The position numbers were made by a program, and so were the translations under genes. The notes beneath the pieces are model-generated. The model searched no databases. It was not told where the DNA came from and worked only from the letters and a program-made list of their open reading frames with translations. This document shows, in pieces, positions 2,813 through 60,214 of a stretch of 64,000 nt of DNA. Each line of letters begins with the position of its first letter. Positions within the stretch are counted from its first letter, which is position 1. The DNA lies in sequence record MN709127.1. One strand, 5' to 3'. The stretch is from Escherichia phage Ec_Makalu_002.

Positions 2813-2841
2813 ATTATGCTATATCCCCGATCCAGCGTCAA
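2813..2841 (-). promoter_or_regulatory. sigma70-like early promoter cassette (TTGACG-N17-CATAAT) with hairpin GGGGATAT/ATATCCCC
   Basis: read on minus strand; followed by CATCGAAAAC box and SD. Confidence 0.5.
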
Positions 2842-2848
2842 CAACTTT

Positions 2849-3148
2849 TTAATCTTTTTTCAGTGCATCCATTACTCGCTCTGCAATCAGTTCTCTTAAG
2901 CACTGATAACCATGATATTTGATAGCAATGTCACGCAGATCATTAACCAGTTCCCGTACTTCATGGTCTTTCAAATCGTCTCTGTATTTCGATTTAACCG
3001 TGTCTTTAGGTGGATTGCGGATAACCTGAAAACCTTGTTCTGCAATCACTGCGGCTTCTCGCTGACGTTCATGCTGTACTGTATTTTTGATCAGGTCTGC
3101 TTCCATGAACTTTGCCATGCTCATCATCATGTTATTCTTTTTGCTCAT
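2849..3148 (-). CDS. hypothetical protein
   Basis: ORF track 2849..3184, but a promoter cassette lies inside its 5' end; internal ATG 3148 (MSKKNN...) has SD GAGGA. Confidence 0.45.
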   Translation of the reverse strand: MSKKNNMMMSMAKFMEADLIKNTVQHERQREAAVIAEQGFQVIRNPPKDTVKSKYRDDLKDHEVRELVNDLRDIAIKYHGYQCLRELIAERVMDALKKD

Positions 3149-3182
3149 TATTAAATCCTCATAAAAGAAAAGGGAGACTCCC

Positions 3183-3210
3183 ATTATAGAGAATCTCCCT
3201 TGTATGTCAA
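3183..3210 (-). promoter_or_regulatory. sigma70-like promoter (TTGACA-N16-TATAAT) overlapping palindrome GGGAGACTCCC
   Basis: minus-strand reading immediately downstream of topoisomerase stop. Confidence 0.5.
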
Positions 3211-3216
3211 GTGTTT

Positions 3217-5040
3217 TTAGCTACACATCCACTCTTTACGGCGGTCTGAATCTTCGCTATAGAGCAAATCGAATAGCTCTTTATAGTTTTCCGGTAACGT
3301 GATGATCTCCATGACAGGATCATTGATCACGCGATGATAATCTGATTCTGTAAGCGATGCTAACCCTTTGATATATCGAATGTTATAACCTTTGATATTA
3401 TCTCGGTCGTTCTCGAAATCTTCTAGGTCATAATACCATCGAACATCATCACCTTTCTTTGGTTCTGCAATGATAATAGGCGTTTTGATAAACCGGATTC
3501 GTCCATCTTCGAACAATTCAGGCCAACGTGCAAAGAAAGAGATCAGACTAGGCTTAATAGATCCGATCCCGTCAGTATCCGCGTCAGTCATAATCGCAAT
3601 ATTTTTGTATTGCATAACTTCCAATGCATCAACACCAAATTGCAAGCCAGTGATCGCCATGATGTTAAAAATTTCGGCATTCTTAACGATCTTTGCCTCC
3701 GGTTGTTCCCACGTTGTAAGAGTTTTACCTCGCAACGGGAAACCTCCATGTAAATCTTGATCACGTACAGAGATCAGATAGTTGATCGCGGAGTCACCCT
3801 CCGTCAGAAACAGGGTAGTTTCTGCGTCAGTTCCAATAAGGTTAGCTTTAACGTGTTTTGCTACCTTAGCCCGTTTTGCTGCCTTTGCTGCCTTAGTCGC
3901 TGCCGCTTTATCTGCTGCCTCTTTGCGTGCCAGGACTACAGCAATAATAGGCATGATAATGTTTTCTTTCTTAGCAATGACCTTAGCCAGCTTTTTAAAA
4001 TCAAGATCAATGTGACGCTTGATATCACCAGTCGGGTTAGTCAATCGCTCTTTTGTCTGTGAATCAAAGCGCAGGTTAGGCAATTCACGAACAATAAGAA
4101 TACAGGTCAAACCAGACTTAACCGCAGCTTTAGTAACATCAACCTTATATTCTTTCTTGATTCGTTTTACAATCTCTTCACAAAGATCATCTGTCACATA
4201 GTCTACGTGTGTTCCCCCGTTTTTGGTAAACAGACCATTAGCAAAGGATACAGATTTAAAACCTTCACCCTCAACCGCAGGAACTAGGGCAAGTGAAAAG
4301 TTTTTATCTTCAATGACAAACGGATCATCATTATAGAGTTTAGCATAGTCCTTGAACTTGCTAACAATACGTTTACCATTAAACTTAAACGTGATCTTAG
4401 GAAAGATTACGCTCAATGATTGCAGACGATCATGAACGATATCTAAAACAGAGTTGTCCATCATATAGCCTTCGAAGTGATCGAAGTCTGGACAAAATGT
4501 AACCTTTGTTCCTTTTAATTTTGATGGTTTTGATGACCATGTGATATTTTCAGCACCGTTGGTACATTGAACGGTCATTTCTGTTTCACCGTCACAGGTT
4601 ACACCAGTAAACCAATCGCTAAAGAAATTTGACAACGAAGATCCTACGCCGTTCATCCCTTGCGTTAATCGATTGGTATCATCAAAGTTAGATCCGGCTT
4701 TTGTTCTTGTCCATGCGGCGACTGGTTGCGGAATCTGCGTACCCTCTGGGGTAGTGACCATATGTTGAGGAATACCGCGACCATTGTCTGTTACCGTAAC
4801 AATATTGTTTTGGATATCGACGCTAATCACATTGGCAAATTCAAAATTAGTGCGGATCGCCTCATCTACAGAGTTGTCGATGATCTCATCAATGATTTTA
4901 ACCAGTCCAGGAACGTATGAAATTTTTGTCCACTTACCGAACAGGAAACGTTGATGTTCTTCGTAAGTAGTTGATCCTATGTACATTCCTGCACGCTTAA
5001 GGACATGTTCACGATCCGATAAAATGCGGAACTCACTCAT
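3217..5040 (-). CDS. 39: DNA topoisomerase II large subunit, gp39 with gp60 portion fused (GyrB-like)
   Basis: 607 aa; N-terminus MSEF..ILSD.EHV.KR.GMYIGS and DNGRGIP match T4 gp39 from memory; single continuous ORF. Confidence 0.85.
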   Translation of the reverse strand: MSEFRILSDREHVLKRAGMYIGSTTYEEHQRFLFGKWTKISYVPGLVKIIDEIIDNSVDEAIRTNFEFANVISVDIQNNIVTVTDNGRGIPQHMVTTPEGTQIPQPVAAWTRTKAGSNFDDTNRLTQGMNGVGSSLSNFFSDWFTGVTCDGETEMTVQCTNGAENITWSSKPSKLKGTKVTFCPDFDHFEGYMMDNSVLDIVHDRLQSLSVIFPKITFKFNGKRIVSKFKDYAKLYNDDPFVIEDKNFSLALVPAVEGEGFKSVSFANGLFTKNGGTHVDYVTDDLCEEIVKRIKKEYKVDVTKAAVKSGLTCILIVRELPNLRFDSQTKERLTNPTGDIKRHIDLDFKKLAKVIAKKENIIMPIIAVVLARKEAADKAAATKAAKAAKRAKVAKHVKANLIGTDAETTLFLTEGDSAINYLISVRDQDLHGGFPLRGKTLTTWEQPEAKIVKNAEIFNIMAITGLQFGVDALEVMQYKNIAIMTDADTDGIGSIKPSLISFFARWPELFEDGRIRFIKTPIIIAEPKKGDDVRWYYDLEDFENDRDNIKGYNIRYIKGLASLTESDYHRVINDPVMEIITLPENYKELFDLLYSEDSDRRKEWMCS

Positions 5041-5139
5041 TATTAAACCTCTTCATAACATAACCATAACTTACTGCAACCGCCACAAAGACGGCTGCAA
5101 CAATCATATTAAAAATTGAGTGATTGTCAAGTATATGAC

Positions 5140-5313
5140 TCATGACACGCGCACATTTTTATCGTAATACCCGCCATTAATACCGCGCGGGGCAGTTAAT
5201 CCCTGTTTACATTCTTTCCCACATTCAGGACATTCTGCCTTTTCACGCTCGGAAATTTTGCGGATTTTCTGGAATTGACCGTGTTCTTCACAAGAATAAT
5301 CGTATAATGGCAT
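5140..5313 (-). CDS. FmdB-family zinc-ribbon protein
   Basis: MPLYDYSCEEHG...CPECGKEC; paired CxxC motifs; start set at internal ATG 5313. Confidence 0.6.
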   Translation of the reverse strand: MPLYDYSCEEHGQFQKIRKISEREKAECPECGKECKQGLTAPRGINGGYYDKNVRVS

Positions 5314-5314
5314 A

Positions 5315-5984: not shown

Positions 5985-6227
5985 TTAAATATCCTCCGCG
6001 ATGTGCCGGAACAACTCAAGATCGTTTTTGTCCAGAATGAAACCGCTACAATCAATAATTCCTTTACCGTAATTATCGGTTAACAGTCGGTCCGTTGCCA
6101 TGTATGCGCATACCTTGTTGTTAAAATTCATTACATGTTGTGCATAGTCACAATGAATCTTTTGACGGTTCCACGCGACAATTGATTCAAGATGAATTAC
6201 CTTAGAGATATCGTTAATAACAACCAT
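5985..6227 (-). CDS. hypothetical protein
   Basis: 80-aa ORF; its start codon and RBS lie inside the 58-bp direct repeat. Confidence 0.5.
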   Translation of the reverse strand: MVVINDISKVIHLESIVAWNRQKIHCDYAQHVMNFNNKVCAYMATDRLLTDNYGKGIIDCSGFILDKNDLELFRHIAEDI

Positions 6228-6281
6228 ATCAAAAACCTCGCTTAGTGAAATATTCGATCATTTTATTGATACATGCAGCTT
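6224..6281. repeat. 58-bp direct repeat, copy 1 (57/58 identical to 6401..6458)
   Basis: ccatatcaaaaacctcgcttagtgaaatattcgatcattttattgatacat... read directly in both places. Confidence 0.9.
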
Positions 6282-6404
6282 GGTAGTCACGAGATTTTTT
6301 GACGAATTAAGAGCTACAGCCAAAAAGTCCTGTAATTGTTCGTTTGTCATTTTTGGCTTACGACGCGTATCTAAACTCTTCTTTCTTCTAACTTTATTAG
6401 CCAT
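6258..6404 (-). CDS. hypothetical small basic protein (48 aa)
   Basis: MANKVRRKKSLDTRRKPK...; ORF bounded by the two repeat copies; below the 60-aa ORF-track cutoff. Confidence 0.3.
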   Translation of the reverse strand: MANKVRRKKSLDTRRKPKMTNEQLQDFLAVALNSSKNLVTTKLHVSIK

Positions 6405-6458
6405 ATCAAAAACCTCGCTTAGTGAAATATTCGATCATTTTATTGATACATTCAGCTT
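6401..6458. repeat. 58-bp direct repeat, copy 2
   Basis: see copy 1. Confidence 0.9.
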
Positions 6459-9044: not shown

Positions 9045-9073
9045 AATTGATTCTCCTTAGTTGGTATGTGTTT

Positions 9074-9102
9074 ATTATTGTCTATCTGGTTTGTGCTGTC
9101 AA
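9074..9102 (-). promoter_or_regulatory. sigma70-like promoter (TTGACA-N17-AATAAT)
   Basis: followed by SD TAAGGAGAA and ATG 9044. Confidence 0.5.
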
Positions 9103-9609: not shown

Positions 9610-9612
9610 AAT

Positions 9613-9642
9613 AAAAAAGCCTCCAATCTTTCGACGGGAGGC
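9613..9642 (-). terminator. hairpin GCCTCC..GGAGGC plus T-run just before the ART start (terminator or attenuator)
   Basis: minus strand GCCTCCCGTCGAAAGATTGGAGGCTTTTTTATT. Confidence 0.4.
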
Positions 9643-9671
9643 ATAATAAAACCATTATAGAGTAGTGTCAA
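9643..9671 (-). promoter_or_regulatory. candidate promoter TTGACA-N17-TATTAT
   Basis: lies upstream of the hairpin/T-run, the reverse of the usual cassette order. Confidence 0.3.
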
Positions 9672-15920: not shown

Positions 15921-15964
15921 AGTATATTTCTCACATTGGCGGGTATCGTCACCCAACACCCGCC

Positions 15965-15992
15965 ATTATACACACTTTATTTTAAATGTCAA
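15965..15992 (-). promoter_or_regulatory. sigma70-like promoter (TTGACA-N16-TATAAT) then hairpin GGCGGGT..ACCCGCC
   Basis: -35 overlaps last codons of gene 43. Confidence 0.5.
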
Positions 15993-18660: not shown

Positions 18661-18692
18661 AATATAAACTCCTTCACTTACGAAAGACACTC

Positions 18693-18721
18693 ATTATAGG
18701 GGAGTCGAACTAGTTTGTCAA
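18693..18721 (-). promoter_or_regulatory. consensus sigma70 promoter (TTGACA-N17-TATAAT) inside inverted repeat ATAGGGG..CCCCTAT, upstream of gene 43
   Basis: minus strand ATAGGGGTGTTGACAAACTAGTTCGACTCCCCTATAATGAG. Confidence 0.55.
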
Positions 18722-19685: not shown

Positions 19686-20674
19686 TATACGAACTCCAAT
19701 TCAACCATTAATTGCATTAACAAAAAGACAATGTGAATCTCTTTATCAGCCGCGTGTGCAAACATCTGATTATTTTCACCGATAATCTCAGTGAGACGAA
19801 TAATCGACGCTGGCTTAACTTGAGTATACAACTCATTATAAAGTTTCTTGACAAATTGAGCGTAGGTATTGGTATATCGTGGCGCAAGTTTACGCACATT
19901 AGCAAACTGTTTAGTTTTAAGTGCTTCCACCACATCGGTTACTTCGGTATTGCTACTTTCGATAACCATGCTCAATACACCAGCATCAATTTTACCGTGT
20001 TTTGCGTAACGGTCCAAGAGTTTCATTACGCGCCGGAAATCTGGGAAGTTCTGCTTAACCAGTTCCGCCAATACGCGCATTTCTTCTACTGGAACACCTT
20101 CTTTATCAAGAATTGCTTTACACCGGACGATCATTTCTTTCATCATGCGAAGCTGATCATCTTTAGTCGGAGATCCAAACGTGATGGGGTCAAATCGAGA
20201 TCGCAACGCTGGGATAATACCTTCTAGATCGTTTGCTGTGATAATGAATGTCACATTGTTTGAGTATGCCTCAGAGAAACTACGCAAGTGTCTTTGAGCA
20301 TCAGCCAGCCCCGCTCGGTCATACTCATCGATAATCACAACTTTGCCTTTTTCTCGTTTTTCTTCATCGAGTGATACACTCTGCGCAAAGCGTGTAATCT
20401 CATCGCGGATAAAGTCAATCTTACAATCTGCGCCGTTAACAAACAGATAATCAACGCCCACGTCTTCACAAAGCGCCTTAGCAACGGTTGTTTTACCAGT
20501 ACCCGGTGATGGGCTATGCAGAATCATTGAAGGGATTCGGCCTTGTTTAACGATCTGCGCGAAGATCTTTTTATCTGCTTCCGGCAGAATACATTCAGAA
20601 ATTGATTTCGGACGGTATTTCTGTTCCCACTGAAACTCATTTTCATTAACACTCAGCATATAATCACCTCTCAC
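19685..20674 (-). CDS. 44: clamp loader ATPase gp44 (AAA+)
   Basis: Walker A SPSPGTGKTT; 329 aa. Confidence 0.85.
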   Translation of the reverse strand: MRGDYMLSVNENEFQWEQKYRPKSISECILPEADKKIFAQIVKQGRIPSMILHSPSPGTGKTTVAKALCEDVGVDYLFVNGADCKIDFIRDEITRFAQSVSLDEEKREKGKVVIIDEYDRAGLADAQRHLRSFSEAYSNNVTFIITANDLEGIIPALRSRFDPITFGSPTKDDQLRMMKEMIVRCKAILDKEGVPVEEMRVLAELVKQNFPDFRRVMKLLDRYAKHGKIDAGVLSMVIESSNTEVTDVVEALKTKQFANVRKLAPRYTNTYAQFVKKLYNELYTQVKPASIIRLTEIIGENNQMFAHAADKEIHIVFLLMQLMVELEFV

Positions 20675-20724
20675 AAATTACATCATTAAAACGGGGAGTA
20701 TTTACACTCCCCACAAACATTATA

Positions 20725-21414
20725 TTAGTCGGTGTAGCTGGAGTCAAGGTCACACGCGATCATATAAGATACGGTTTCACTTGCCAGCCATACAGCCTTA
20801 CGGCGAGTGAAGCTCAGTTTGTAATCGCCGAAGTCAGTAGCAACCAGTTTCATGTTGTCTTTACGAATAAAGAAATGGAAGTCGGCGGTTCCGGTATATT
20901 CGCCCATGTCAAGACAAAACATCTCATTAGGATTGTTTTTGTCAATCTCTTCCCAGCCTTTGATCATCAGACGACCATCAATCGGAAGAAATTCAAGGCG
21001 GTCCACTTTAAGCTGATTGCTCATTTTCATAAGCTGTTTCAGATCGTCGTTGCTCAGTTCGTAATCTACATCGCTTGCAGGTGGAGTAACTCGGCCTTTC
21101 GGTGATACGATAGCGGCAGCACTAGCACCAGGATAATTAATTTTCAGTCGATCGTTAGACACACGAATGTTTCCAGTGCGGTTATCAACCGTAATATCTG
21201 CTTCATCGCCTACCAGATTCAGAATACCCAGGAAAGAGTTAAGATCATAGATCCCGATTTCGTGTTCCAGTTCTTGATTCAGAGTCGCTTCACCATATAC
21301 AACGTTTGTCATGTTTTTGGTGATCAGGACGTTTCCTTTTTTCAGGATGATACCTGGGTTAATAGCGGAAAAGTTTTTCAGAGTAGCAATAGTTTCTTTA
21401 GTCAGTTTCATCAA
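20725..21414 (-). CDS. 45: sliding clamp gp45
   Basis: 229 aa; MKLTKETIATLKNF... resembles T4 gp45. Confidence 0.85.
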   Translation of the reverse strand: MMKLTKETIATLKNFSAINPGIILKKGNVLITKNMTNVVYGEATLNQELEHEIGIYDLNSFLGILNLVGDEADITVDNRTGNIRVSNDRLKINYPGASAAAIVSPKGRVTPPASDVDYELSNDDLKQLMKMSNQLKVDRLEFLPIDGRLMIKGWEEIDKNNPNEMFCLDMGEYTGTADFHFFIRKDNMKLVATDFGDYKLSFTRRKAVWLASETVSYMIACDLDSSYTD

Positions 21415-25235: not shown

Positions 25236-25498
25236 CGTACAGACTCCATAGATCCACGCGCAATAACATTCTGGGTAATATCAGCAATCTTACGGGATAC
25301 AATGGTCGCTAGTTCCAGTCTAGTGATATTGTCTCGGTCGAAAGGAATTTCGTCATGTGTCCACATCCCGTAGTTAGAACGGAAGGATAGCATATGTTGA
25401 CCATTCCGAACAACCTCAAAAACTCGGATCTTAGTGAACTTCTCTAAACTTGCGTTAAATTCTTTCAGTGCATCAGTAATCATAATAACCTCCATCAA
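25232..25498 (-). CDS. hypothetical protein
   Basis: 88-aa ORF; SD GGAGG; preceded by promoter cassette. Confidence 0.45.
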   Translation of the reverse strand: MMEVIMITDALKEFNASLEKFTKIRVFEVVRNGQHMLSFRSNYGMWTHDEIPFDRDNITRLELATIVSRKIADITQNVIARGSMESVR

Positions 25499-25507
25499 TT
25501 TTTAGTG

Positions 25508-25536
25508 AGTATAACGGGGATTTCTCCCCGCGTCAA
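25508..25536 (-). promoter_or_regulatory. sigma70-like promoter (TTGACG-N17-TATACT), hairpin GGGGA..TCCCC in spacer
   Basis: begins right after gp47 stop. Confidence 0.5.
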
Positions 25537-26562: not shown

Positions 26563-26652
26563 AGTCTCTTCCTCTCTTAGTTTTCGATGCTCTCACTATA
26601 TCACAGAAAAATAAAAAGGGAAACCCCTTTCGGAGTCTCCCTTATAAAGCCA

Positions 26653-32919: not shown

Positions 32920-32961
32920 ATTTGATTCTCCTGTAAAGTTGTATCTCGTCTTGATGAATAT

Positions 32962-32990
32962 AGTATAGGGGATCTCGCGATCCCCGTCAA
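32962..32990 (-). promoter_or_regulatory. sigma70-like promoter (TTGACG-N17-TATACT), spacer palindrome GGGGATC..GATCCCC
   Basis: minus-strand reading. Confidence 0.5.
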
Positions 32991-34100: not shown

Positions 34101-34132
34101 AATGTTGTCCTCTCTTTGTTTTCGATGTGAGC

Positions 34133-34160
34133 ATTATACATGAGCTAATCATGTTGTCAA
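34133..34160 (-). promoter_or_regulatory. sigma70-like promoter (TTGACA-N16-TATAAT)
   Basis: directly follows nrdD terminator; CATCGAAAAC box. Confidence 0.55.
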
Positions 34161-34162
34161 CA

Positions 34163-34202
34163 CCCCAAAAACGAAAAAAGCCGACCCTTTCGGATCGGCT
34201 GA
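34163..34202 (-). terminator. rho-independent terminator after nrdD
   Basis: minus strand AGCCGATCCGAAAGGGTCGGCTTTTTTCGTTTTT. Confidence 0.65.
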
Positions 34203-36608: not shown

Positions 36609-36638
36609 AATATAATCCTCTCGTTGTTAAGTGGGAGT

Positions 36639-36666
36639 ATTATAGCATACTCCCTTCGCATGTCAA
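36639..36666 (-). promoter_or_regulatory. sigma70-like promoter (TTGACA-N16-TATAAT), hairpin GGGAGTAT..ATACTCCC
   Basis: minus-strand reading. Confidence 0.5.
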
Positions 36667-37841: not shown

Positions 37842-37872
37842 AATATAATCCTCTCGTTGTTTAGATGGGAGT

Positions 37873-37901
37873 ATCTTACTACTCCCGTTTCATCATGTCA
37901 A
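37873..37901 (-). promoter_or_regulatory. sigma70-like promoter (TTGACA-N17-TAAGAT), hairpin GGGAGTA..TACTCCC
   Basis: minus-strand reading. Confidence 0.45.
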
Positions 37902-38751: not shown

Positions 38752-38782
38752 TGTTGATTCTCCTTCTTGATTAGATGGGAGT

Positions 38783-38811
38783 ATTTTACTACTCCCATTT
38801 CTTATTGTCAA
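38783..38811 (-). promoter_or_regulatory. sigma70-like promoter (TTGACA-N17-TAAAAT)
   Basis: minus-strand reading. Confidence 0.5.
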
Positions 38812-41973: not shown

Positions 41974-42007
41974 AATATAATCCTCACATCGTTCATTTGA
42001 TGCGGCT

Positions 42008-42036
42008 ATTATAGGATAACCGCATTTTCATGTCAA
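42008..42036 (-). promoter_or_regulatory. sigma70 consensus promoter (TTGACA-N17-TATAAT), hairpin GCGG..CCGC
   Basis: minus-strand reading. Confidence 0.55.
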
Positions 42037-42642: not shown

Positions 42643-42684
42643 TTTGATTCTCCTTAAGAAAGTGTGTTTCGTTTTGATGTGTGT

Positions 42685-42713
42685 AGTATAGGGGATCGGC
42701 GATCCCCTGTCAA
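42685..42713 (-). promoter_or_regulatory. sigma70-like promoter (TTGACA-N17-TATACT), spacer palindrome GGGGATC..GATCCCC
   Basis: minus-strand reading. Confidence 0.5.
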
Positions 42714-44968: not shown

Positions 44969-44997
44969 CTTTGATTCTCCTTAGTTGGTATGTGTGC

Positions 44998-45025
44998 ATT
45001 ATAGCACTATGATTTTCATTGTCAA
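44998..45025 (-). promoter_or_regulatory. sigma70 consensus promoter (TTGACA-N16-TATAAT)
   Basis: directly follows terminator. Confidence 0.55.
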
Positions 45026-45030
45026 CAACT

Positions 45031-45064
45031 AAAAACAAAAAAGGCTACCCCGAAGGATAGCCCA
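45031..45064 (-). terminator. rho-independent terminator after the Gly-rich gene
   Basis: minus strand GGGCTATCCTTCGGGGTAGCCTTTTTTGTTTTT. Confidence 0.65.
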
Positions 45065-46128: not shown

Positions 46129-46169
46129 TTTTGATTCTCCTAGAAAGTGTATCTCGTTTCGATGGGTGT

Positions 46170-46198
46170 ATTATGCAATAACACCGGATCGCTGTCAA
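46170..46198 (-). promoter_or_regulatory. sigma70-like promoter (TTGACA-N17-CATAAT)
   Basis: CATCGAAAC box downstream. Confidence 0.5.
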
Positions 46199-47184: not shown

Positions 47185-47383
47185 TCTTTACAGTCTCCAT
47201 AATTGTTTTGTAAGCCAGTTTAAGATGATCACCGAAAAACTTTGCGGTGTTACCTTTCGGATCGCGAAGCATGGTTTCTACGATCTCATCGGCAGTAACA
47301 ATTTCTCCTTTCTTTGCTGCATGTTCTACCATATACTTCAAAGTTTCTTCGGAAGCAAGTGCTGCGGCTACTGGATTAATCAT
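47174..47383 (-). CDS. hypothetical protein
   Basis: 69-aa ORF; SD AAGGAGAA. Confidence 0.45.
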   Translation of the reverse strand: MINPVAAALASEETLKYMVEHAAKKGEIVTADEIVETMLRDPKGNTAKFFGDHLKLAYKTIMETVKNAK

Positions 47384-47412
47384 TTTGATTCTCCTTTGTT
47401 GTCGATGTGTGC

Positions 47413-47441
47413 ATTATGCTATACTATATTCCGGTTGTCAA
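47413..47441 (-). promoter_or_regulatory. sigma70-like promoter (TTGACA-N17-CATAAT)
   Basis: directly follows terminator; CATCGACAAC box. Confidence 0.55.
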
Positions 47442-47444
47442 CAC

Positions 47445-47480
47445 CTAAAAACGAAAAAGCCACCCTTTCGGATGGCTTTT
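47445..47480 (-). terminator. rho-independent terminator (GAAA tetraloop)
   Basis: minus strand AAGCCATCCGAAAGGGTGGCTTTTTCGTTTTT. Confidence 0.65.
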
Positions 47481-47711
47481 GATTATATTTTATTCACGTC
47501 CATTTGTATAGTAGTGTTTGAATCGACCTTTGCTAAACTAGTTAAACATAGTAACCAATTCACCATCCCTTTCCAATGATAACCCTTCCTCGTCTTAGAC
47601 GGGTCTTCCGATTCGGCAGTAATTGAACACGCGAAAGTATGAGGAAGCCAAATAGTTGTGTTAATGCTAGTATTCTTTTACTTCTGGTATGCATCCACCC
47701 TGTGACTAACA

Positions 47712-55845: not shown

Positions 55846-56184
55846 TCACACCTTCAAAGTCATAGACGCATAAACATTAATATCAGGCCAGTTAGGATCG
55901 CAATTATACTCAACATCCCACAAATAAAGCGGTTTAGATGTATCAGCCAGGTTTTTAAAATCTTCTACCCACATTTCAAGGCTATATGAAGGATAAACTA
56001 GGCTATCATACCCGCCGTAACGTTGGCCTACTGGTCGGTCAGTAAAGACTACCTCAAGATCCGGCAATTCTTTTTCTAGGATAACAGCCAGCGCATAAAT
56101 CAGGCGGTCTTCCTTGTTACGCTGCCGTAGGACCGTTGTTAGTTGGTTCTTCTGGTTCACTAGCAAGTACCTCCACATTTTCAC
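55846..56184 (-). CDS. hypothetical protein (possible 3' part of a frameshifted gene)
   Basis: 112-aa ORF overlapping 56117..56437 by 68 nt. Confidence 0.4.
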   Translation of the reverse strand: MKMWRYLLVNQKNQLTTVLRQRNKEDRLIYALAVILEKELPDLEVVFTDRPVGQRYGGYDSLVYPSYSLEMWVEDFKNLADTSKPLYLWDVEYNCDPNWPDINVYASMTLKV

Positions 56185-56437
56185 AGAATGAAATTTTCAC
56201 AGACACAATTTTACCATAAGTGAAGAATGAATATACATTATCGAGATATTCAACGTCACCTACAATCACATCAAACTGCGGGTCAGCCACTGCCGCAACA
56301 TATTCTACCAGTTCATCAAGAGAATGCAACTTAATTTCATCAATTCGGCTATATTTGGTTGCATCTTTAATTTTAAAACCACGTTCTTTCAGCTTGTCAA
56401 TCAGAATTTCGCGCGGAGTTTCAAACAGTTTGCTCAT
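56117..56437 (-). CDS. hypothetical protein (possible 5' part of a frameshifted gene)
   Basis: 106-aa ORF; low-complexity tail EPEEPTNNGPTAA in overlap; SD GAGGATTATATT. Confidence 0.4.
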   Translation of the reverse strand: MSKLFETPREILIDKLKERGFKIKDATKYSRIDEIKLHSLDELVEYVAAVADPQFDVIVGDVEYLDNVYSFFTYGKIVSVKISFCENVEVLASEPEEPTNNGPTAA

Positions 56438-56455
56438 AATATAATCCTCACACAG

Positions 56456-56656
56456 TTAATCAGTATAATCAATAATCTTGCACATTATAACAGAAAGAAC
56501 AAAGACCGCAACCCACATATAGATCCCAGCAATCAATGCAATTTCAATATCACAATATCCAAGATATACAACAGGAATAAAAACAAACATACAGACCAGC
56601 GCAATGAAACTAGCATATACGCTCGAAAATCTGATGGCACTATTATTAATTTTCAT
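56456..56656 (-). CDS. small membrane protein
   Basis: 66 aa hydrophobic. Confidence 0.45.
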   Translation of the reverse strand: MKINNSAIRFSSVYASFIALVCMFVFIPVVYLGYCDIEIALIAGIYMWVAVFVLSVIMCKIIDYTD

Positions 56657-56657
56657 A

Positions 56658-56840
56658 TTAACAATCCTCGCGGCTTAAGTCAACAGCAATTGCATACAGA
56701 AGAATGAATATACTAGCAGATCCCAGAATCAATGCACCGTCACATTTTGAAACTCGCTCATCAAAATGCAACATTATCCATCCGAGGATGTTAAAGGCGC
56801 ATATCGCGCCTATGTTATCTAACCAATTAATCTTTTTCAT
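56658..56840 (-). CDS. small membrane protein
   Basis: 60 aa hydrophobic. Confidence 0.45.
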   Translation of the reverse strand: MKKINWLDNIGAICAFNILGWIMLHFDERVSKCDGALILGSASIFILLYAIAVDLSREDC

Positions 56841-56848
56841 AATATACC

Positions 56849-57175
56849 TTAGAAAGAAACAGTTTTCAAGAAATCCAGATTTTCAGTACCGAAAACAGAA
56901 AAGTAGTGTTTTCCTTTTTCGGTTTTAGAGAAAGCGATTGTCTTCTCTACATGGTGACGGAAGCCAGACAGACGATCACCCAGGTCAAGGCGGCAAGCGT
57001 AAGTAGTGCCGTTTTCGAAAGTAACCTCGATTTGAGTTTTGTCATATTCGCTTTCATAGGCTTTTGCTGCCGCTTCCAGTGCTTTACGCTCGAAGTCTTC
57101 GAAGTGGAATACTTCGTTTGCGTTAGCGAATACAGAAGATTCAGAGAAGATAACTTTAACAGATACTGGTTTCAT
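56849..57175 (-). CDS. hypothetical protein
   Basis: 108-aa ORF. Confidence 0.45.
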   Translation of the reverse strand: MKPVSVKVIFSESSVFANANEVFHFEDFERKALEAAAKAYESEYDKTQIEVTFENGTTYACRLDLGDRLSGFRHHVEKTIAFSKTEKGKHYFSVFGTENLDFLKTVSF

Positions 57176-57217
57176 TTTGATACTCCTTAGTAGTTCGTGT
57201 TTCGTTTCGATGGGTGT

Positions 57218-57246
57218 ATTATGCTATACACCCTCTCGCGTGTCAA
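57218..57246 (-). promoter_or_regulatory. sigma70-like promoter (TTGACA-N17-CATAAT), hairpin GGGTGTAT..ATACACCC
   Basis: CATCGAAACGAAAC box downstream. Confidence 0.55.
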
Positions 57247-57254
57247 CAACTTTT

Positions 57255-57443
57255 TTAGTCTTTTTTCATAATTTCTAGAGCAGTTTCTACCGCACCTTTC
57301 CAACCCTCCCACATAATGGACATGGTAATGAAGGTAAAGCACCCACAGGAATCAGCCTTTTTAGAAATAAACCATTCTACAAACTCTTCGCTCATACCAT
57401 GCTCTTTAGCGGATTCGCGTAATTGTTCAATTTTGTCTTCCAT
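57255..57443 (-). CDS. hypothetical protein
   Basis: 62-aa ORF. Confidence 0.4.
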   Translation of the reverse strand: MEDKIEQLRESAKEHGMSEEFVEWFISKKADSCGCFTFITMSIMWEGWKGAVETALEIMKKD

Positions 57444-57465
57444 AGTATCACCTCAACACTTAACG

Positions 57466-57654
57466 TTATTCAAACGGTTTATTCAACCTATTGTAAAAGT
57501 ACATGTAACAAGCATAGTTTTGTTTTGGTTGTACCGTATCCGATAGACACGCTTTTACAGCCTCGCGGTCCGATGGATCTACACCCTCAGCTTTAAGTAA
57601 TGCTAAAATCTGGTTATAGCGTACTCTCAATTGCGTTAATGGTTTATCCCCCAT
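57466..57654 (-). CDS. hypothetical protein
   Basis: 62-aa ORF. Confidence 0.4.
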   Translation of the reverse strand: MGDKPLTQLRVRYNQILALLKAEGVDPSDREAVKACLSDTVQPKQNYACYMYFYNRLNKPFE

Positions 57655-57663
57655 ATTACCCCC

Positions 57664-57891
57664 TTATAGTTGATCAGCGATGTATGCGGTGCATTTGCGG
57701 AGTTTAGCCATAGCACCACCTTTCATGTCGCTTGCGCCTACAATGTTCATGATCTCTAAGCGATCAGCCGGATTCAGTCTAGTAGCCCAGATCTGGTTAG
57801 CCAGTTCCATTTTACCCATCTGCGGTTCCATCTCAAACAGTTCACGCTCAAAGTCGATAATTTCTTTTGCTGCGTCTTTAAAGTTAATCAT
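57664..57891 (-). CDS. hypothetical protein
   Basis: 75-aa ORF. Confidence 0.4.
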   Translation of the reverse strand: MINFKDAAKEIIDFERELFEMEPQMGKMELANQIWATRLNPADRLEIMNIVGASDMKGGAMAKLRKCTAYIADQL

Positions 57892-57920
57892 TTTGATTCT
57901 CCCGTTTCGTTGATGGTTGT

Positions 57921-57949
57921 ATTGTAGGGGAGTTATCCTCCCCTGTCAA
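57921..57949 (-). promoter_or_regulatory. sigma70-like promoter (TTGACA-N17-TACAAT), hairpin AGGGGAG..CTCCCCT
   Basis: minus-strand reading. Confidence 0.5.
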
Positions 57950-57957
57950 CACTTTTA

Positions 57958-58143
57958 TCAGAAATATGCAATATAGTTTGCCAGCCCTACAGAGTCATCA
58001 TTCGGCATTGCTTTTACCGCCAGTTCAAACCCTGCTTCAACTTTCTGTTTAGCGGATTCTTCGTTATAACCCCAGATTACCAGAATAGCTACTACGTTTT
58101 CTTTGCTTACTGCTTTCAGTGCTTTAGTGATGCGACGTGCCAT
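57958..58143 (-). CDS. hypothetical protein
   Basis: 61-aa ORF. Confidence 0.4.
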   Translation of the reverse strand: MARRITKALKAVSKENVVAILVIWGYNEESAKQKVEAGFELAVKAMPNDDSVGLANYIAYF

Positions 58144-58189
58144 AATTTGATTCTCCGTTTAAGAAAGTGTGTTTCGTTTCGATGGGTGT

Positions 58190-58218
58190 ATTATGCTATA
58201 GGCCGGATCTGGTGTCAA
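58190..58218 (-). promoter_or_regulatory. sigma70-like promoter (TTGACA-N17-CATAAT)
   Basis: directly follows terminator; CATCGAAACGAAAC box. Confidence 0.55.
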
Positions 58219-58242
58219 CAACTTTTTTAAAAAAATTTTAGG

Positions 58243-58271
58243 CAATAAAAAAGCCACTCCGAAGAGTGGCT
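58243..58271 (-). terminator. rho-independent terminator
   Basis: minus strand AAGCCACTCTTCGGAGTGGCTTTTTTATT. Confidence 0.65.
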
Positions 58272-58419
58272 TATAGGGAAGGTAGCGAATCTTCCTTGTC
58301 TCCAACCTGCTAGCGGCCTAGCAAGTGAATGCTTTAGCGTACCGGATCGCCCATACGCTGCAATAAATGCGGCTAGGTGACGTCCAAATCATTCTAACCG
58401 CGCTGTCTTTAGTTCACTA

Positions 58420-58638
58420 TTATTTATATCGCTTTCTCTCGCGACGTTTTTGATCTTCTTCCTTGATAGAGTTAAATGCATCAAAAAGACACATGACACT
58501 AATAATAAACATAACCGTATTTTCTACGATATCCCACGGCTTCGCATCAGTACAGATCCCCCAAACGGTAAGAAATGCAAATAAGGCAGAAGAGATCACA
58601 AGCATGATACTTGCTAAGACATAAAAGGTCATCTTCAT
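58420..58638 (-). CDS. small membrane protein
   Basis: 72 aa; hydrophobic core, basic tail. Confidence 0.45.
   Translation of the reverse strand: MKMTFYVLASIMLVISSALFAFLTVWGICTDAKPWDIVENTVMFIISVMCLFDAFNSIKEEDQKRRERKRYK
58421..58428 (-). promoter_or_regulatory. T4-type late promoter core TATAAATA
   Basis: exact motif overlapping upstream stop, heading a 148-nt non-coding stretch. Confidence 0.4.
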
Positions 58639-58829
58639 GGTTTTACCTCAATTCTTCGATATTCATCACACATCCATGCAGTAAGCAAGAATCCCAACAC
58701 ATAAGCAACAAAATACGTTAATGCTTCTTCTGGTTCGGTGCTATGCGCCATCATCAGACCAGCGAGAAAGGTCTTAACAATTACATTTAAAATAATTAGC
58801 CACGCAAATAATTTCATCGTTTGCCCCAT
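58635..58829 (-). CDS. small membrane protein
   Basis: 64 aa hydrophobic. Confidence 0.45.
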   Translation of the reverse strand: MGQTMKLFAWLIILNVIVKTFLAGLMMAHSTEPEEALTYFVAYVLGFLLTAWMCDEYRRIEVKP

Positions 58830-59053
58830 TTCGGTCGAGTCTTCTCAAACTTATACATTCCGTGACAATCTCGAATCATCCACGTAACAAGAGCACCACT
58901 CAACACCGACAGCACACAGAAGAAGTAAAACGGTCCGGTTGCATTATCAACATGAGCAAGCCATGTAAAGAATACACATGCTAAGAATGTAAAGAACATC
59001 ATAAAACACAAGAAAGCAAAATATTTTATGCTACTCATATCGCCACCATACAA
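58814..59053 (-). CDS. small membrane protein
   Basis: 79 aa hydrophobic. Confidence 0.45.
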   Translation of the reverse strand: MYGGDMSSIKYFAFLCFMMFFTFLACVFFTWLAHVDNATGPFYFFCVLSVLSGALVTWMIRDCHGMYKFEKTRPKWGKR

Positions 59054-59141
59054 CAGATCATAAGAAACCCAAACGCAATAAGAATTGCATCAAATTTAGT
59101 GAACTCCGGTCCACCTATCAACATCATTCGTTCCTGTTCAG

Positions 59142-59339
59142 TCATAGATCACAGATCCATCTAAAAGCACCACATACAGCGATCAGGAGTGTAGGAACAC
59201 TTGAGAAGAAAACCAATGTACAAAAATCATCTAGTGTAATACCGGAATAACTACCGACTGCAATCACACCGATGATCAGACACAGAAAGAAAACAAATGC
59301 AATCAGAAACAAAGTATTGCTAAACAGTTTAGTGATCAT
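59142..59339 (-). CDS. small membrane protein
   Basis: 65 aa hydrophobic. Confidence 0.45.
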   Translation of the reverse strand: MITKLFSNTLFLIAFVFFLCLIIGVIAVGSYSGITLDDFCTLVFFSSVPTLLIAVCGAFRWICDL

Positions 59340-59533
59340 TAGACACCCCCACGACGGTCAATTTCAAAAACTTTCTTATCACAGACAAAGCAGGTCACTA
59401 CAGCCTCATTGACTTCCGCAAATTGTTGTGTTACCCACTTAAGGTCAGAGCGAAACAATGTTTTGTTAATAACAAATGTTTTACCTTTCTTATCCTTACC
59501 CATAAATTTTGCTTTAACCATATCCAATTCCAT
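59339..59533 (-). CDS. dmd: Dmd-like antitoxin (inhibitor of RnlA/LsoA-type toxins)
   Basis: ME...FMG..K...W.TQQFAEVNEAVV..F..DKKV.E.D.RG pattern matches T4 Dmd (60 aa) as recalled. Confidence 0.5.
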   Translation of the reverse strand: MELDMVKAKFMGKDKKGKTFVINKTLFRSDLKWVTQQFAEVNEAVVTCFVCDKKVFEIDRRGGV

Positions 59534-59542
59534 ATTATCACC

Positions 59543-59701
59543 TTATTTGCTAATCGCTAAACCTAATCCGAAGAGAGCACCAGACGCTACAGTATACCCG
59601 AAAGTTTCAAAGGCAGTCAAGATATCCAACCCACCAGCTAACAGAGTTGCAGTAAACAGAGTACCAGCTACGAACATAAAAGTTTTACCGATAAATTTCA
59701 T
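59543..59701 (-). CDS. small membrane protein (52 aa)
   Basis: MKFIGKTFMFVAGTLFTATLLAGG...; SD AAGGAGAA. Confidence 0.35.
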   Translation of the reverse strand: MKFIGKTFMFVAGTLFTATLLAGGLDILTAFETFGYTVASGALFGLGLAISK

Positions 59702-59733
59702 TTTGATTCTCCTTTCGTTTGTTTGTTGGGGGT

Positions 59734-59762
59734 ATCTTACTACCCCCGTTTCATGTTGTCAA
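59734..59762 (-). promoter_or_regulatory. sigma70-like promoter (TTGACA-N17-TAAGAT), hairpin GGGGGTA..TACCCCC
   Basis: minus-strand reading. Confidence 0.45.
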
Positions 59763-59768
59763 CTGTTT

Positions 59769-60146
59769 TTAAGAAAATTTTACTTCGTCTACAATGTCTT
59801 TCATGACATTGATTTCCATTCCGGTCAGAACACGTTGGAACATGTGCTGCACATACGCTTTCAGGTATTCATTTGATGGCTTGCTATCAAAAGTCTTTTT
59901 AGTGTAGTAGTCATCACCGAAAGCTACTGTAATTACATTTTCGTCGTCGTTCCAGGCAATATAAGCAAATTTGCCGTTATCCCAGAATCGAGCACTAATT
60001 GCTACTTTCGTTGAATCGAATCCTACTTCGCTGTGAGATTCAAGAACTACTTGCGTGCCAGTTTCTTTATGAATGTAGTAGCGGGATACTAAGTCAAAGT
60101 TACGGGTGTAGTGACATTCGAATTTATCTTTAAACATCATCATCAT
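59769..60146 (-). CDS. hypothetical protein
   Basis: 125-aa ORF. Confidence 0.5.
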   Translation of the reverse strand: MMMMFKDKFECHYTRNFDLVSRYYIHKETGTQVVLESHSEVGFDSTKVAISARFWDNGKFAYIAWNDDENVITVAFGDDYYTKKTFDSKPSNEYLKAYVQHMFQRVLTGMEINVMKDIVDEVKFS

Positions 60147-60185
60147 TTTTTGATTCTCCTAAGTGTGTTTCGTTTCGATGTGTGC

Positions 60186-60214
60186 ATTATGCTATAGTCG
60201 TTTATGGTTGTCAA
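60186..60214 (-). promoter_or_regulatory. sigma70-like promoter (TTGACA-N17-CATAAT)
   Basis: directly follows terminator; CATCGAAACGAAAC box. Confidence 0.55.

Follow-up and report, generated by a model that had tools for sequence, protein, structure and literature searches.

The analysed window, 64,000 nucleotides of Escherichia phage Ec_Makalu_002 (MN709127.1), carries 26 intergenic promoter cassettes, which are very probably the PeSL (promoter-early stem-loop) elements of an RB49-type T4-like coliphage. Sequence comparison placed the window phage in Krischvirus, with 98.8% identity to Escherichia phage Ec_Makalu_003 and ~95% to RB49, phi1, JSE and GEC-3S, all members of that genus. Nineteen of the 26 cassettes align base for base, at a constant offset of +14 nt, with early promoters that Nolan et al. 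2006 predicted for RB49. The likeness to PeSL elements of RB49/phi1/JSE-type phages, proposed in a sequence-only reading of this DNA, was thus borne out, the window itself being such a phage.

A family of minus-strand intergenic cassettes

Using a strict promoter scan (TTGAC[AG], a 16–18 nt spacer and a −10 with at least 4 of 6 matches including A2 and T6), 47 sites were found on the minus strand of the window and 5 on the plus strand, versus 4.3 ± 2.1 sites (maximum 9) expected from the same scan of dinucleotide shuffles. About 24 of the 47 minus-strand sites lie in non-coding DNA, which occupies 8.5% of the window, giving a density ~11-fold that in coding sequence. The 26 cassettes comprise strict-scan sites and two TTGACT sites; all are on the minus strand, 24–62 nt upstream of an SD-ATG. 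Their −35 is TTGACA in 21, TTGACG in three and TTGACT in two; the spacer is 17 nt in 20 and 16 nt in six; and the −10 is TATAAT (8 cassettes), CATAAT (6), TATACT (3), TAAGAT (2), TAAAAT (1) or another hexamer. The promoter layout described earlier therefore holds, with TTGACT added. The tract upstream of the cassettes is A/T-rich (A+T 72% vs 60% background).

An nhmmer profile built from the cassettes recovered 18 full-length members (E≤5e-9), all intergenic and on the minus strand, with a repeat length of ~80–100 nt; within the window it gave no plus-strand match at E<1 and no member at E≤5e-9 in coding sequence. The earlier estimate of about 20 copies is therefore accurate, and the motif is not equally common in coding sequence. 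Supportively, the four largest families of an unbiased direct-repeat search (D1–D4, 66–79 nt) are the cassettes. The cassettes, followed by two degenerate relatives, are listed below, with Pe numbers giving the equivalent RB49 early promoters.

60147..60254, minus: cassette before RB49 ORF125 homologue (nhmmer E 3e-14; Pe:60694); T-tract terminator 60254-60232, TTGACA at 60214, 17-nt spacer, CATAAT, CATCGAAACGAAAC leader, GGAG SD
59702..59762, minus: cassette before ORF124 homologue (Pe:60244); stem GGGGGTA/TACCCCC over −10 TAAGAT
58144..58272, minus: cassette before ORF117 homologue (best nhmmer match, E 1e-14; Pe:58699); terminator 58272-58251, then −35 at 58218, CATAAT, CATCGAAACGAAAC leader
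57892..57949, minus: cassette before ORF116 homologue (Pe:58430); stem GGGGAG/CTCCCC within spacer
57176..57246, minus: cassette before ORF113 homologue (Pe:57746); stem GGGTGTAT/ATACACCC over −10 CATAAT
52026..52085, minus: cassette before ORF095 homologue (Pe:52389); stem GGGGGTA/TACCCCC over −10; upstream TAG stop abuts −35
51178..51240, minus: looser cassette before vs.1 (E 2e-4); TTGACT-17-TATTAT; only long-range 7–15 bp pairing around promoter
47384..47480, minus: cassette before ORF084 homologue (Pe:47746); terminator 47480-47455, −35 at 47441, CATAAT
46129..46198, minus: cassette before ORF080 homologue (Pe:46502); bulged stem over −10
44969..45063, minus: cassette before ORF078 homologue, directly past gp38 (Pe:45336); terminator 45063-45042, then TTGACA-16-TATAAT
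42643..42713, minus: cassette before ORF070 homologue (Pe:43045); spacer stem GGGGATC/GATCCCC
41974..42036, minus: cassette before ORF068 homologue (matches RB49 early promoter); stem GCGGTTAT/ATAGCCGC over −10 TATAAT
38752..38811, minus: cassette before ORF060 homologue (Pe:39144); stem GGGAGTA/TACTCCC over −10 TAAAAT
37842..37901, minus: cassette before frd.2 (matches RB49 early promoter); stem GGGAGTA/TACTCCC over −10; upstream TGA stop within −35 hexamer
36609..36666, minus: cassette before ORF057 homologue (matches RB49 early promoter); stem GGGAGTAT/ATACTCCC over −10; TGA stop within −35
34101..34200, minus: cassette before ORF055 homologue, past nrdD (Pe:34495); terminator AGCCGATCC-gaaa-GGGTCGGCT plus T-tract, then TTGACA-16-TATAAT
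32920..32990, minus: cassette before ORF053 homologue (matches RB49 early promoter); TTGACG; spacer stem GGGGATC/GATCCCC
25484..25536, minus: looser cassette before ORF038 homologue (E 3e-3); TTGACG abutting TAG stop; stem CGGGGA/TCCCCG in spacer
20660..20747, minus: promoter and downstream hairpin before gene 44; −35 inside gene 45; not a tight family member; counterpart in RB49 record a "hypothetical early promoter"
18661..18721, minus: promoter before gene 43 (DNA polymerase; E 0.035); GGGG...CCCC pairing across −35
15921..15992, minus: promoter and downstream 12-bp hairpin before ORF025 homologue; −35 inside gene 43 3′ end
9610..9671, minus: promoter before modB (E 2e-5; Pe:9496); terminator-like hairpin GCCTCC...GGAGGC-TTTTTT in leader
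9045..9102, minus: cassette before srd (Pe:8927); no convincing stem-loop; leader 89% identical to that of cassette 45025 (direct repeat D19)
5041..5130, minus: looser promoter and downstream hairpin before gene 39 (topoisomerase II large subunit)
3149..3210, minus: promoter before ORF005 homologue (E 1e-3); 13-bp stem with TATAAT as loop, then TTTTCTTTT
2783..2841, minus: cassette before ORF004 homologue (Pe:2846); TTGACG; stem GGGGATAT/ATATCCCC over −10 CATAAT
26563..26652, minus: degenerate relative before gene 47; terminator, extended −10 TGaTATAGT without −35, CATCGAAAAC leader, SD
53243..53328, minus: degenerate relative before nrdC.11; terminator 53320-53296, extended −10 TGaTACGAT without −35

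The claim that the −35 often overlaps the upstream stop codon holds in part: at 37901 and 36666 the hexamer (TTGA) contains the stop, at 52085 and 25536 the two abut, and at the other cassettes the stop is mostly 3–11 nt upstream.

We consider it highly improbable that the cassettes are ordinary early promoters and terminators that evolved independently and converged on the sigma70, SD and terminator consensus, with neither a homologous cassette nor a shuffling role. The −35, −10 and SD are indeed functional consensus sequences, and ~8 of the 26 sites, most of them among the replication genes, score weakly against the family profile; these could be no more than promoters specific to single genes, with operator hairpins. 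However, similarity extends to the spacer, the 30–45 nt leader (for example CATCGAAACGAAACACACTTTCTTAAGGAGAATCAAA at both 58218 and 42713) and the upstream AAAAAGTTG, none of which is under consensus constraint, and the 18 copies match at nhmmer E values of 1e-9 to 1e-14, with repeat families of 66–79 nt.

Stem-loops, terminators and the leader box

A stem-loop score of at least 17 was reached by 77% of cassettes; among intragenic promoter-like sites the share was 17%, and among random windows it was 16% (Mann-Whitney p=2.6e-5). In addition, the cassette stem-loops occupy the five positions described for PeSLs. The G/C hairpins reported over the spacer or −10 were recovered, GGGTGTAT/ATACACCC at 57246 and GGGAGTA/TACTCCC at 38811, 37901 and 36666. 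In the nine stems over the −10, the inner 7 bp are paired in 63/63 cells with 2–4 pair types per position, versus only 44–59% pairing in shifted registers. Intrinsic terminators stand directly upstream of five cassettes (60254-60232, 58272-58251, 47480-47455, 45063-45042 and ~34200-34179), at all five places where a strong terminator had been noticed, and the prediction tool called four of the five. The conserved box was likewise confirmed: CATCGAAAC has five exact minus-strand copies, versus 0.79 expected on both strands together, it runs from −1 to +8 of the transcript as predicted, and CATC lies exactly 5 nt past the −10 in 14 of the 26 cassettes.

The stem classes differ in strand preference. 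The sense strand is more stable by a mean of 3.2 kcal/mol in the upstream class and 5.3 kcal/mol in the downstream class, whereas the stems embedded in the spacer or over the −10 are nearly strand-symmetric (mean sense-minus-antisense −0.6 to −0.7 kcal/mol). No U-tract follows any of the 14 embedded stems, whose tails read, for example, AUCGAAAC or UAUACU, and terminator prediction on the coding strand called none of the 14. Among orthologue substitutions, Watson-Crick/G.U changes outnumber A.C changes by 10 to 1 over all stems (p=0.006); the −10-overlapping stems have 5 G.U, 1 A.C and 2 mismatches (G.U vs A.C p=0.11), and the spacer stems 2 mismatches. An RNA-level role of the embedded stems is therefore a candidate only, given their near strand symmetry and the p=0.11 in the −10-overlapping class. 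Most likely, they attenuate or 3′-stabilise read-through RNA.

A rival reading, in which the embedded stems serve as RNA 3′-end protectors or processing barriers and not as transcription terminators, so that read-through is followed by a block to 3′→5′ exonucleases that sets upstream mRNA stability, is possible but rather doubtful. At −12 to −14 kcal/mol these G/C-rich stems are stable; they lie directly past stop codons, lack a U-tract and occur only in read-through RNA, and the RNA-turnover factors RegB and Dmd are encoded in the same region; against this, the published assay was interpreted as showing termination or attenuation, though it cannot tell the two mechanisms apart (PMC2839356).

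The embedded perfect G/C palindromes could also work as DNA, not as RNA terminators, through cruciform or hairpin extrusion, which we regard as unlikely. The extruded structures could modulate promoter activity with supercoiling, or a structure-specific protein, with phage endonuclease VII (encoded at 38815-39288) as one candidate, could recognise them and make the cassettes active recombination hotspots. The strand symmetry, the lack of U-tracts and the location of these stems outside their own transcript are consistent with such a role; the stem sequence varies with pairing kept, which fits structure-specific better than sequence-specific recognition; breakpoints adjoin embedded stems; and Arbiol et al. 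speculate on a DNA-binding recombination protein targeting GGGG...CCCC. But stems of 7–8 bp with 4–6 nt loops are short for cruciform extrusion, most observed junctions fall within a leader, an SD or the edge of a −35 and not in stems, the few orthologue substitutions lean to G.U over A.C (5 vs 1), and one PeSL stem-loop lowered downstream lacZ expression in a terminator-like manner (PMC2839356).

Gene-module differences among relatives

Comparison of gene content and junctions between the window and 10 relatives revealed three clean gene-module gains or losses with junctions inside cassettes. phiS is without gp38 and ORF080, and the promoter of cassette 46198 is fused to ORF078 through a shared GGAGAATCAA SD. 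Skers, which lacks gp38, carries another spacer-stem promoter, and its sequence is homologous again from the −10 and leader of cassette 45025 onward; an additional 144-nt ORF in this phage is flanked by two cassettes, the join falling within the CATCGAAAC box of cassette 57246. JSE has no ORF004, its cassette 2841 driving ORF003 instead, and the difference ends at the leader of this cassette; a 588-nt insertion ends exactly at the −35 of cassette 3210, and a homing-endonuclease replacement has one edge at or near the −35 of cassette 9671, upstream of modB. RB49 has the HNH ORF040 inserted at the ATG of the degenerate gene 47 relative (26563..26652).

The three module differences, which give chimeric cassettes, argue against independent origin of the promoters. 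In favour of such an origin, intergenic indels are not significantly enriched at cassettes (6 of 16 indels versus the 10 relatives touch a canonical cassette, with ~3.4–4 expected on random gene junctions; P~0.1), and homing endonucleases, introns or tandem-paralogue changes with no relation to cassettes account for many of the other events. The suggestion that the cassettes are vehicles of modular shuffling is thus upheld by the clean junctions in the ORF comparison, with the junction-level statistics weakly supportive.

A proposed working of the element

Each cassette would act as a self-contained expression and boundary unit of ~60–110 nt between consecutive early genes, from the stop codon of one to the start of the next. 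Its putative order is an A/T-rich tract, which in five copies would be the U-tract of an intrinsic terminator, a near-consensus sigma70 −35/−10, a short conserved leader and a GGAG or GAGG SD. Unmodified host RNA polymerase would read these promoters immediately after infection; the start is predicted at the A of CCC-ATCG, so that the CATCGAAAC box would form the first mRNA nucleotides. The stem-loop would mark the 3′ boundary of the upstream transcript, as an ordinary rho-independent terminator where it precedes the −35 and has a U-tract, and, where it lies in the spacer or over the −10, it would be present only in read-through RNA. Promoter and terminator activity would be expected by analogy with RB49 and phi1. 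As dispersed same-orientation repeats with 25–80 nt of similarity, the cassettes may offer homology to the phage's own recombination system, so that flanked genes could be lost, gained or swapped with neighbour expression undisturbed. Excised circles made up of a cassette and its ORF have been reported, by PCR, for RB49/phi1.

Comparison with known PeSL elements

The definition of PeSL elements comes from RB49 and phi1 (Arbiol et al. 2010; PMC2839356): a near-consensus sigma70 promoter is preceded by an AT-rich tract and combined with a G(n)-loop-C(n) stem-loop at any one of five positions, the whole being placed after a stop codon and before an SD-ATG. Such elements cluster in hyperplastic regions (PMC2839356; PMC4122927). 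In RB49/phi1, PeSL206/205 showed promoter activity by lacZ and the PeSL211/210 stem-loop showed terminator activity (PMC2839356). The sigma70 architecture noted earlier, distinct from the T4 early consensus, agrees with this literature: T4 early promoters have GTTTAC at −35, whereas RB49 prefers G at −33 and the PeSL promoter is described as TTGACA-N17-TATAAT (PMC4122927). Promoters and terminators are already annotated at equivalent places in the GEC-3S GenBank record. All sequence-level PeSL features of RB49/phi1 are found in the window cassettes; the motif repeated along this DNA is the PeSL element described in the literature, and its observation here is correct but already known.

A family of promoter cassettes lies between the genes of the minus strand

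The window, with a G+C content of ~40% and all substantial ORFs on its minus strand, is 98.8% identical over region 44000-60500 to Escherichia phage Ec_Makalu_003 and ~95% identical there to RB49, JSE, GEC-3S and ECD7 (all Krischvirus). RB49 and phi1 are collinear with the whole window, from rIIA to gene 2, at ~95% identity. Therefore, the window belongs to Krischvirus, and the cassettes described here, minus-strand intergenic units of promoter, stem-loop and leader named by the first base of the -35, belong to the lineage where PeSLs (promoter-early stem-loop elements) were first described. Relatives for comparison were taken from GenBank phage records, with full-length alignments of the window for RB49, phi1 and JSE, and alignments over roughly 33-61 kb for GEC-3S, ECD7, Skers, phiS, pEJ01, Whisky and Brandy. 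An IMG/VR search anchored on RegB, whose gene is present in the window at 51263-51685, returned a single locus, ECD7.

Using a strict scan (TTGAC[AG], a 16-18 nt spacer and a -10 with at least 4/6 matches including A2 and T6), 47 sites were found on the minus strand and 5 on the plus strand, compared with 4.3 +/- 2.1 in dinucleotide shuffles. The non-coding 8.5% of the window, by our own gene map, holds ~24 of the 47 minus-strand sites, with an SD-ATG 24-62 nt downstream. Inspection of every intergenic gap of the window gave the 26 cassettes tabulated below.

First base of the -35 of the 26 cassettes, minus strand
Cassettes 1-9: 60214, 59762, 58218, 57949, 57246, 52085, 51240, 47441, 46198
Cassettes 10-18: 45025, 42713, 42036, 38811, 37901, 36666, 34160, 32990, 25536
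Cassettes 19-26: 20747, 18721, 15992, 9671, 9102, 5130, 3210, 2841

The same sites ranked top with a consensus scanner (11-12/12 matches), and terminators were called directly upstream at four. With a profile HMM built from the cassettes, 18 members were recovered at full length (E 1e-14 to 5e-9); each is intergenic and on the minus strand. The profile gave weaker matches at cassettes 9671, 51240, 3210, 25536 and 18721, while no match below E=1 was found on the plus strand of the window. Supportively, an unbiased direct-repeat search returned the cassettes as the four largest families (66-79 nt), with the two leader/SD types as separate families. The sequence-only reading had estimated about 20 copies, in line with 18 full-length family members and 26 cassettes in all. 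These 18 tight members of one repeat family lie mostly at 32.9-60.3 kb among small hypothetical ORFs (16/18), the other two being in the 0-32.9 kb replication-gene block. All 26 cassettes stand between a stop codon and an SD plus start codon, with 24-62 nt from the -10 to the start codon and the upstream stop codon 0-25 nt before the -35 or inside it; the earlier statement that the -35 often overlaps the stop codon applies to two true overlaps, besides two abutments, and "often" was overstated.

The promoter is of the sigma70 type and is followed by a standard leader

The -35 is TTGACA in 21 cassettes, TTGACG in three and TTGACT in two; the spacer is 17 nt in 20/26 and 16 nt in 6/26, and the -10 matches at 4-6 of six positions, so that the hexamers and spacer lengths first read from the sequence proved correct. 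TTGACA is usually preceded by GTG or TTG, and the 22 nt before the -35 (-25 to -4) have a mean A+T of 72%, compared with 60% in the window. The T4-type -35 (GTTTAC, T at -33) is absent from all 26 cassettes, each of which has TTGAC with G at the corresponding position, and this bears out the assignment to sigma70 rather than to the T4 early consensus. RB49 early promoters likewise prefer G at -33, and RB49 has no MotA and no middle promoters (Nolan et al. 2006, PMC1524935).

Downstream of the -10, five mostly C-rich bases are followed by CATC, at a fixed offset in 14/26 cassettes, and the exact 9-mer CATCGAAAC occurs in five minus-strand copies, with 0.79 expected for both strands. With +1 placed 7 nt past the -10, at the A of CCC-ATCG, the CATCGAAAC box is predicted to cover -1 to +8. 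This predicted start agrees with the RB49 early promoters, which are C-rich at -3 to -1, carry T or C at -12 (TATAAT/CATAAT) and have a consensus that matched 5'-end mapping (Nolan et al. 2006, PMC1524935). Two leader endings occur, (A)GGAGAATCAAA-ATG and GAGAGGATTATATT-ATG, and GGAG is present in the SD of 16/23 cassette genes, compared with 29/103 other genes (p=5e-4). GGAG is the tetranucleotide at which the endoribonuclease RegB cleaves early mRNAs of T4, and a ribosome-binding site sensitive to RegB, serving early shut-off, may be built into the cassette.

Stem-loops occupy the PeSL positions

The best stem per cassette falls among the five PeSL positions, as listed below; cassette 9102 alone has none. 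The example hairpins of the sequence-only reading are indeed present at cassettes.

Position of the best stem in the cassettes, minus strand
Upstream of the -35, with T-tract: five cassettes (60214, 58218, 47441, 45025, 34160)
In the spacer: four cassettes (57949, 42713, 32990, 25536)
Overlapping the -10, the loop holding part of the hexamer: ten cassettes
Downstream of the -10: four cassettes
Spanning the -35 or the whole promoter: two cassettes

A stem score of at least 17 was reached by 77% of cassettes; the figure was 16% for random windows and 17% for promoter-like sites within genes (p=2.6e-5). Of the ten stems overlapping the -10, nine were counted (the bulged 46198 stem was left out), and in these each of the inner seven positions was always paired and showed 2-4 kinds of pair, versus 44-59% paired in registers shifted by 1-2 nt, the 100% pairing being partly by construction since hairpin-centred counting registers each stem on itself. 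The pairs were counted by script on the hairpin-centred segments; MAFFT aligned the hairpins by sequence, not by structural register. As the inner pairs are kept despite this variety of pair types, the structure is conserved and the sequence variable.

All five upstream stems have the G/C stem of at least 5 bp, the 3-8 nt loop and the U-tract of a rho-independent terminator, and the five cassettes that had been read as terminator-linked (60214, 58218, 47441, 45025 and 34160) were correctly placed.

Terminators directly upstream of cassettes
60254-60232, minus strand, called by the terminator scan
58272-58251, minus strand, called by the terminator scan
47480-47455, minus strand, called by the terminator scan
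45063-45042, minus strand, called by the terminator scan
~34200-34179, minus strand, recognised in the cassette stem-loop analysis

Sense-strand G.U pairs occur in three of these five stems, whose sense-strand form is the more stable by 4.5-6.1 kcal/mol. By class, sense RNA is more stable than antisense by a mean of 3.2 kcal/mol for upstream and 5.3 kcal/mol for downstream stems, whereas spacer and -10 stems are essentially strand-symmetric (-0.6 and -0.7 kcal/mol). The U-tracts and the sense-strand stability therefore identify the upstream stems as ordinary intrinsic terminators. The 14 stems embedded in the promoter, within the spacer or over the -10, have no U-tract, and none was called a terminator on the coding strand in the terminator scan of the window.

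Substitutions in orthologous stems of the relatives, tallied after paralogous matches from relatives not covering the locus had been discarded by hand, comprised 10 Watson-Crick<->G.U changes versus one A.C (p=0.006), half of them from terminator-class or downstream stems; in the stems overlapping the -10 only, the counts were five G.U versus one A.C (p=0.11). The embedded stems, perfect palindromes, may act as RNA or at the DNA level. We consider it improbable that these G/C palindromes are DNA-level structures for a structure-specific phage factor, for example endonuclease VII, and not RNA terminators; if they were, each early promoter would be an actively targeted recombination hotspot, and gene shuffling would run on a dedicated system rather than on passive homology. 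The mechanism matters for annotation because the stems are early transcription-unit boundaries. It also matters for the engineering of therapeutic RB49-like phages, in which sites flanked by cassettes offer natural points of insertion.

Gene exchange in relatives includes junctions inside cassettes

Approximately 19 distinct indel or replacement events were found across the alignments of the relatives (ORF numbers denote homologues of RB49 ORFs). Three of them are clean cassette events. phiS has neither gp38 nor ORF080, and its ORF078 is joined to the promoter half of cassette 46198 in the GGAGAATCAA SD that both share, the overlap being ambiguous over 37 nt. Skers, without gp38, has a different spacer-stem promoter past the ORF080 stop, and homology restarts at the -10 and leader of cassette 45025; it also carries an extra 144-nt ORF between two cassettes, with the junction within the CATCGAAAC box of cassette 57246. 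Three further events, all in JSE, end at parts of cassettes: ORF004 is missing, the break falling directly after CATCGAAA in the leader of cassette 2841; an insertion of 588 nt stops exactly at the -35 of cassette 3210; and a homing-endonuclease replacement stops within the promoter of cassette 9671. Unrelated to canonical cassettes are homing endonuclease/intron events (17458, 35198, 39608, 26563 and 53256), tandem-paralogue changes (43376-43548, 44252-44455, 55765-55881 and 56452-56653), a deletion between 58-nt direct repeats (6281-6401) and an internal gene deletion (47528-47547).

Cassettes were touched by 6/16 intergenic events, versus ~3.4-4 expected at random gene junctions (P~0.1, not significant) in a simulation that treats adjacent junctions approximately; against a uniform-position null, the same events gave P=3e-4. 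The sequence-only reading had presented the cassettes as vehicles of modular shuffling and proposed comparing cassette-flanked ORFs among relatives; this comparison yielded three clean cassette-internal junctions, but no significant enrichment at the level of junctions. A cassette-based exchange mechanism is illustrated in the relatives, not statistically established. Since neither Skers nor phiS has gp38, this gene behaves like a host-range module gained by horizontal transfer at a cassette site.

The gp38 tail-fibre adhesin gene (45070-45849) lies among early ORFans, has ~80% nucleotide identity to T-even gp38 of other genera, and is flanked by a terminator on one side (45885-45870) and by a terminator plus cassette on the other (45063-44969). 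Elsewhere, the ORF009.1 homologue lies between the two copies of a 58-nt direct repeat (6224-6281 and 6401-6458; 98% identity, spaced by 177 nt). RB49 and JSE have a single copy of the repeat without this homologue, a difference consistent with recombination between repeats, independently of cassettes, by which the segment was deleted or duplicated.

Other elements near the cassettes

Additional sites in the window
26563-26652: half cassette (intrinsic terminator, then extended -10 TGnTAnnnT, without -35), also with a CATCGAAAAC leader
53243-53328: half cassette of the same build
55623-55684, 54367-54428 and 48400-48467: gene junctions with a G/C stem-loop and no recognisable promoter
12409-12451: TTGACA-17-TACACT-ACACCCA inside the dc2 homologue, partial match to the cassette profile (E 4e-4)
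63614-63642, plus strand: TTGACA-17-TAAAAT with upstream TG, the one sigma70-like site of this strand with a high score
30884-32267: recurring segments of 30-57 nt (families D8 and D11), indicating tandem paralogues, the ORF049-051 homologues
58245-58419, minus strand: 175-nt non-coding stretch between the ORF118 homologue and terminator 58272-58251
47384-47711: 328-nt "intergenic gap" upstream of cassette 47441

Both half cassettes are HNH/homing endonuclease insertion sites in relatives (RB49 ORF040; JSE, phiS, pEJ01 and Whisky), and a 644-nt insertion adjoins 54367-54428 in JSE, phiS, pEJ01 and Whisky. The site at 12409-12451 equals Pe:12270, one of the early promoters predicted in RB49, and is a possible internal promoter. 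The plus-strand site lies in a non-coding stretch directly upstream of gene 2 and adjoins the gene 4 homologue. The stretch at 58245-58419 has an unusually stable fold (-63.8 kcal/mol, z=-4.1) and is 97-100% identical in 10 relatives, versus a genome average of ~95%, with differences confined to one loop; it may be a 3'-UTR-derived small RNA. No Rfam family and no tRNA match was found in the whole window, this stretch included. A small RNA at 47384-47711 was rejected, this gap being the deletion remnant of a 2148-nt gene intact in Brandy (NPJJOOEL_00082); the window and RB49 share a ~1.96 kb internal deletion, with edges at 47528 and 47547, and phi1 annotates a small ORF084.1 at the gap.

The cassettes compared with known systems

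PeSLs are the published answer to how large lytic phages exchange accessory genes with neighbouring expression intact. Their presence here is mainly a confirmation that the class, its positions and its sub-types are conserved across Krischvirus, and what is added is a few concrete chimeric junctions, namely the gain or loss of the gp38 adhesin and the extra ORF in Skers. RB49 and phi1 carry 51 and 52 PeSLs, respectively, of exactly this architecture; lacZ fusion showed promoter activity of PeSL206/205 only, terminator-like activity was measured for one stem-loop only (PeSL211/210), and cassette-to-cassette recombination and mini-circles were proposed (Arbiol et al. 2010, PMC2839356). The RB49/phi1 type has been given as TTGACA-N17-TATAAT with G(n)-loop-C(n) stems (Comeau et al. 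2014, PMC4122927). These PeSLs share with the cassettes here the promoter, the AT-rich tract, the G(n)-loop-C(n) stems and their five positions, the placement between stop codon and SD-ATG, the bias to hyperplastic regions, and flanked ORFs that vary among relatives. There is no essential difference; the isolate lineage differs (closest Ec_Makalu_003), as do some flanked modules, and the experimentally tested PeSLs 193/192, 206/205 and 211/210 lie outside the window.

In RB49, 51 early promoters were predicted (Nolan et al. 2006, PMC1524935), of which 24 lie in the part homologous to the window. With positional orthology judged by BLAST mapping against that list rather than published PeSL coordinates, 19/26 cassettes, including all 18 tight members, coincide with these predicted (Pe) sites, the offset being +14 nt throughout. 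"Hypothetical early promoters" are annotated in the RB49 GenBank record at the homologues of 20747, 18721 and 15992, and promoter and terminator features at equivalent sites in the GEC-3S record. Desplats et al. in 2002 reportedly handled the RB49 early sites as promoters only, with primary 5'-end mapping. They were also treated as promoters only by Nolan et al. 2006, the stem-loop, leader and recombination being added by the PeSL papers. Same genus, same sequence architecture and orthology to RB49 sites uphold the likening to PeSLs of RB49/phi1/JSE-type phages, and support the conclusion that the cassettes are PeSL family members in a close relative of the type phages, a correct rediscovery of what the literature, and in part GenBank annotation, already contains.

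The PeSL variants of T4/PST and KVP40/nt-1 (PMC4122927) have in common with the cassettes the promoter plus stem-loop architecture at ORFan borders in hyperplastic regions. However, the T4/PST elements have TTTACW-N17-TAYWAT with AGNA-loop-TCNT stems and those of nt-1/KVP40 have TTGYVH with A3-4G3-loop-C3T3-4 stems, whereas the cassettes here have a near-perfect E. coli consensus and G-run/C-run stems. Lambdoid morons similarly place a gene, complete with promoter and terminator, between resident ones, and the Botstein-Campbell "linker" sequences are likewise conserved and permit module exchange; but morons lack a conserved repeat at their flanks and often face the opposite way, whereas the cassettes are all co-oriented and recombination is proposed to act on the regulatory repeat itself. 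Integron gene cassettes are also small promoter-associated ORF cassettes, and circular intermediates have been reported for RB49/phi1; the cassettes here differ in being without integrase and attC/attI, general T4-type homologous recombination being presumed instead.
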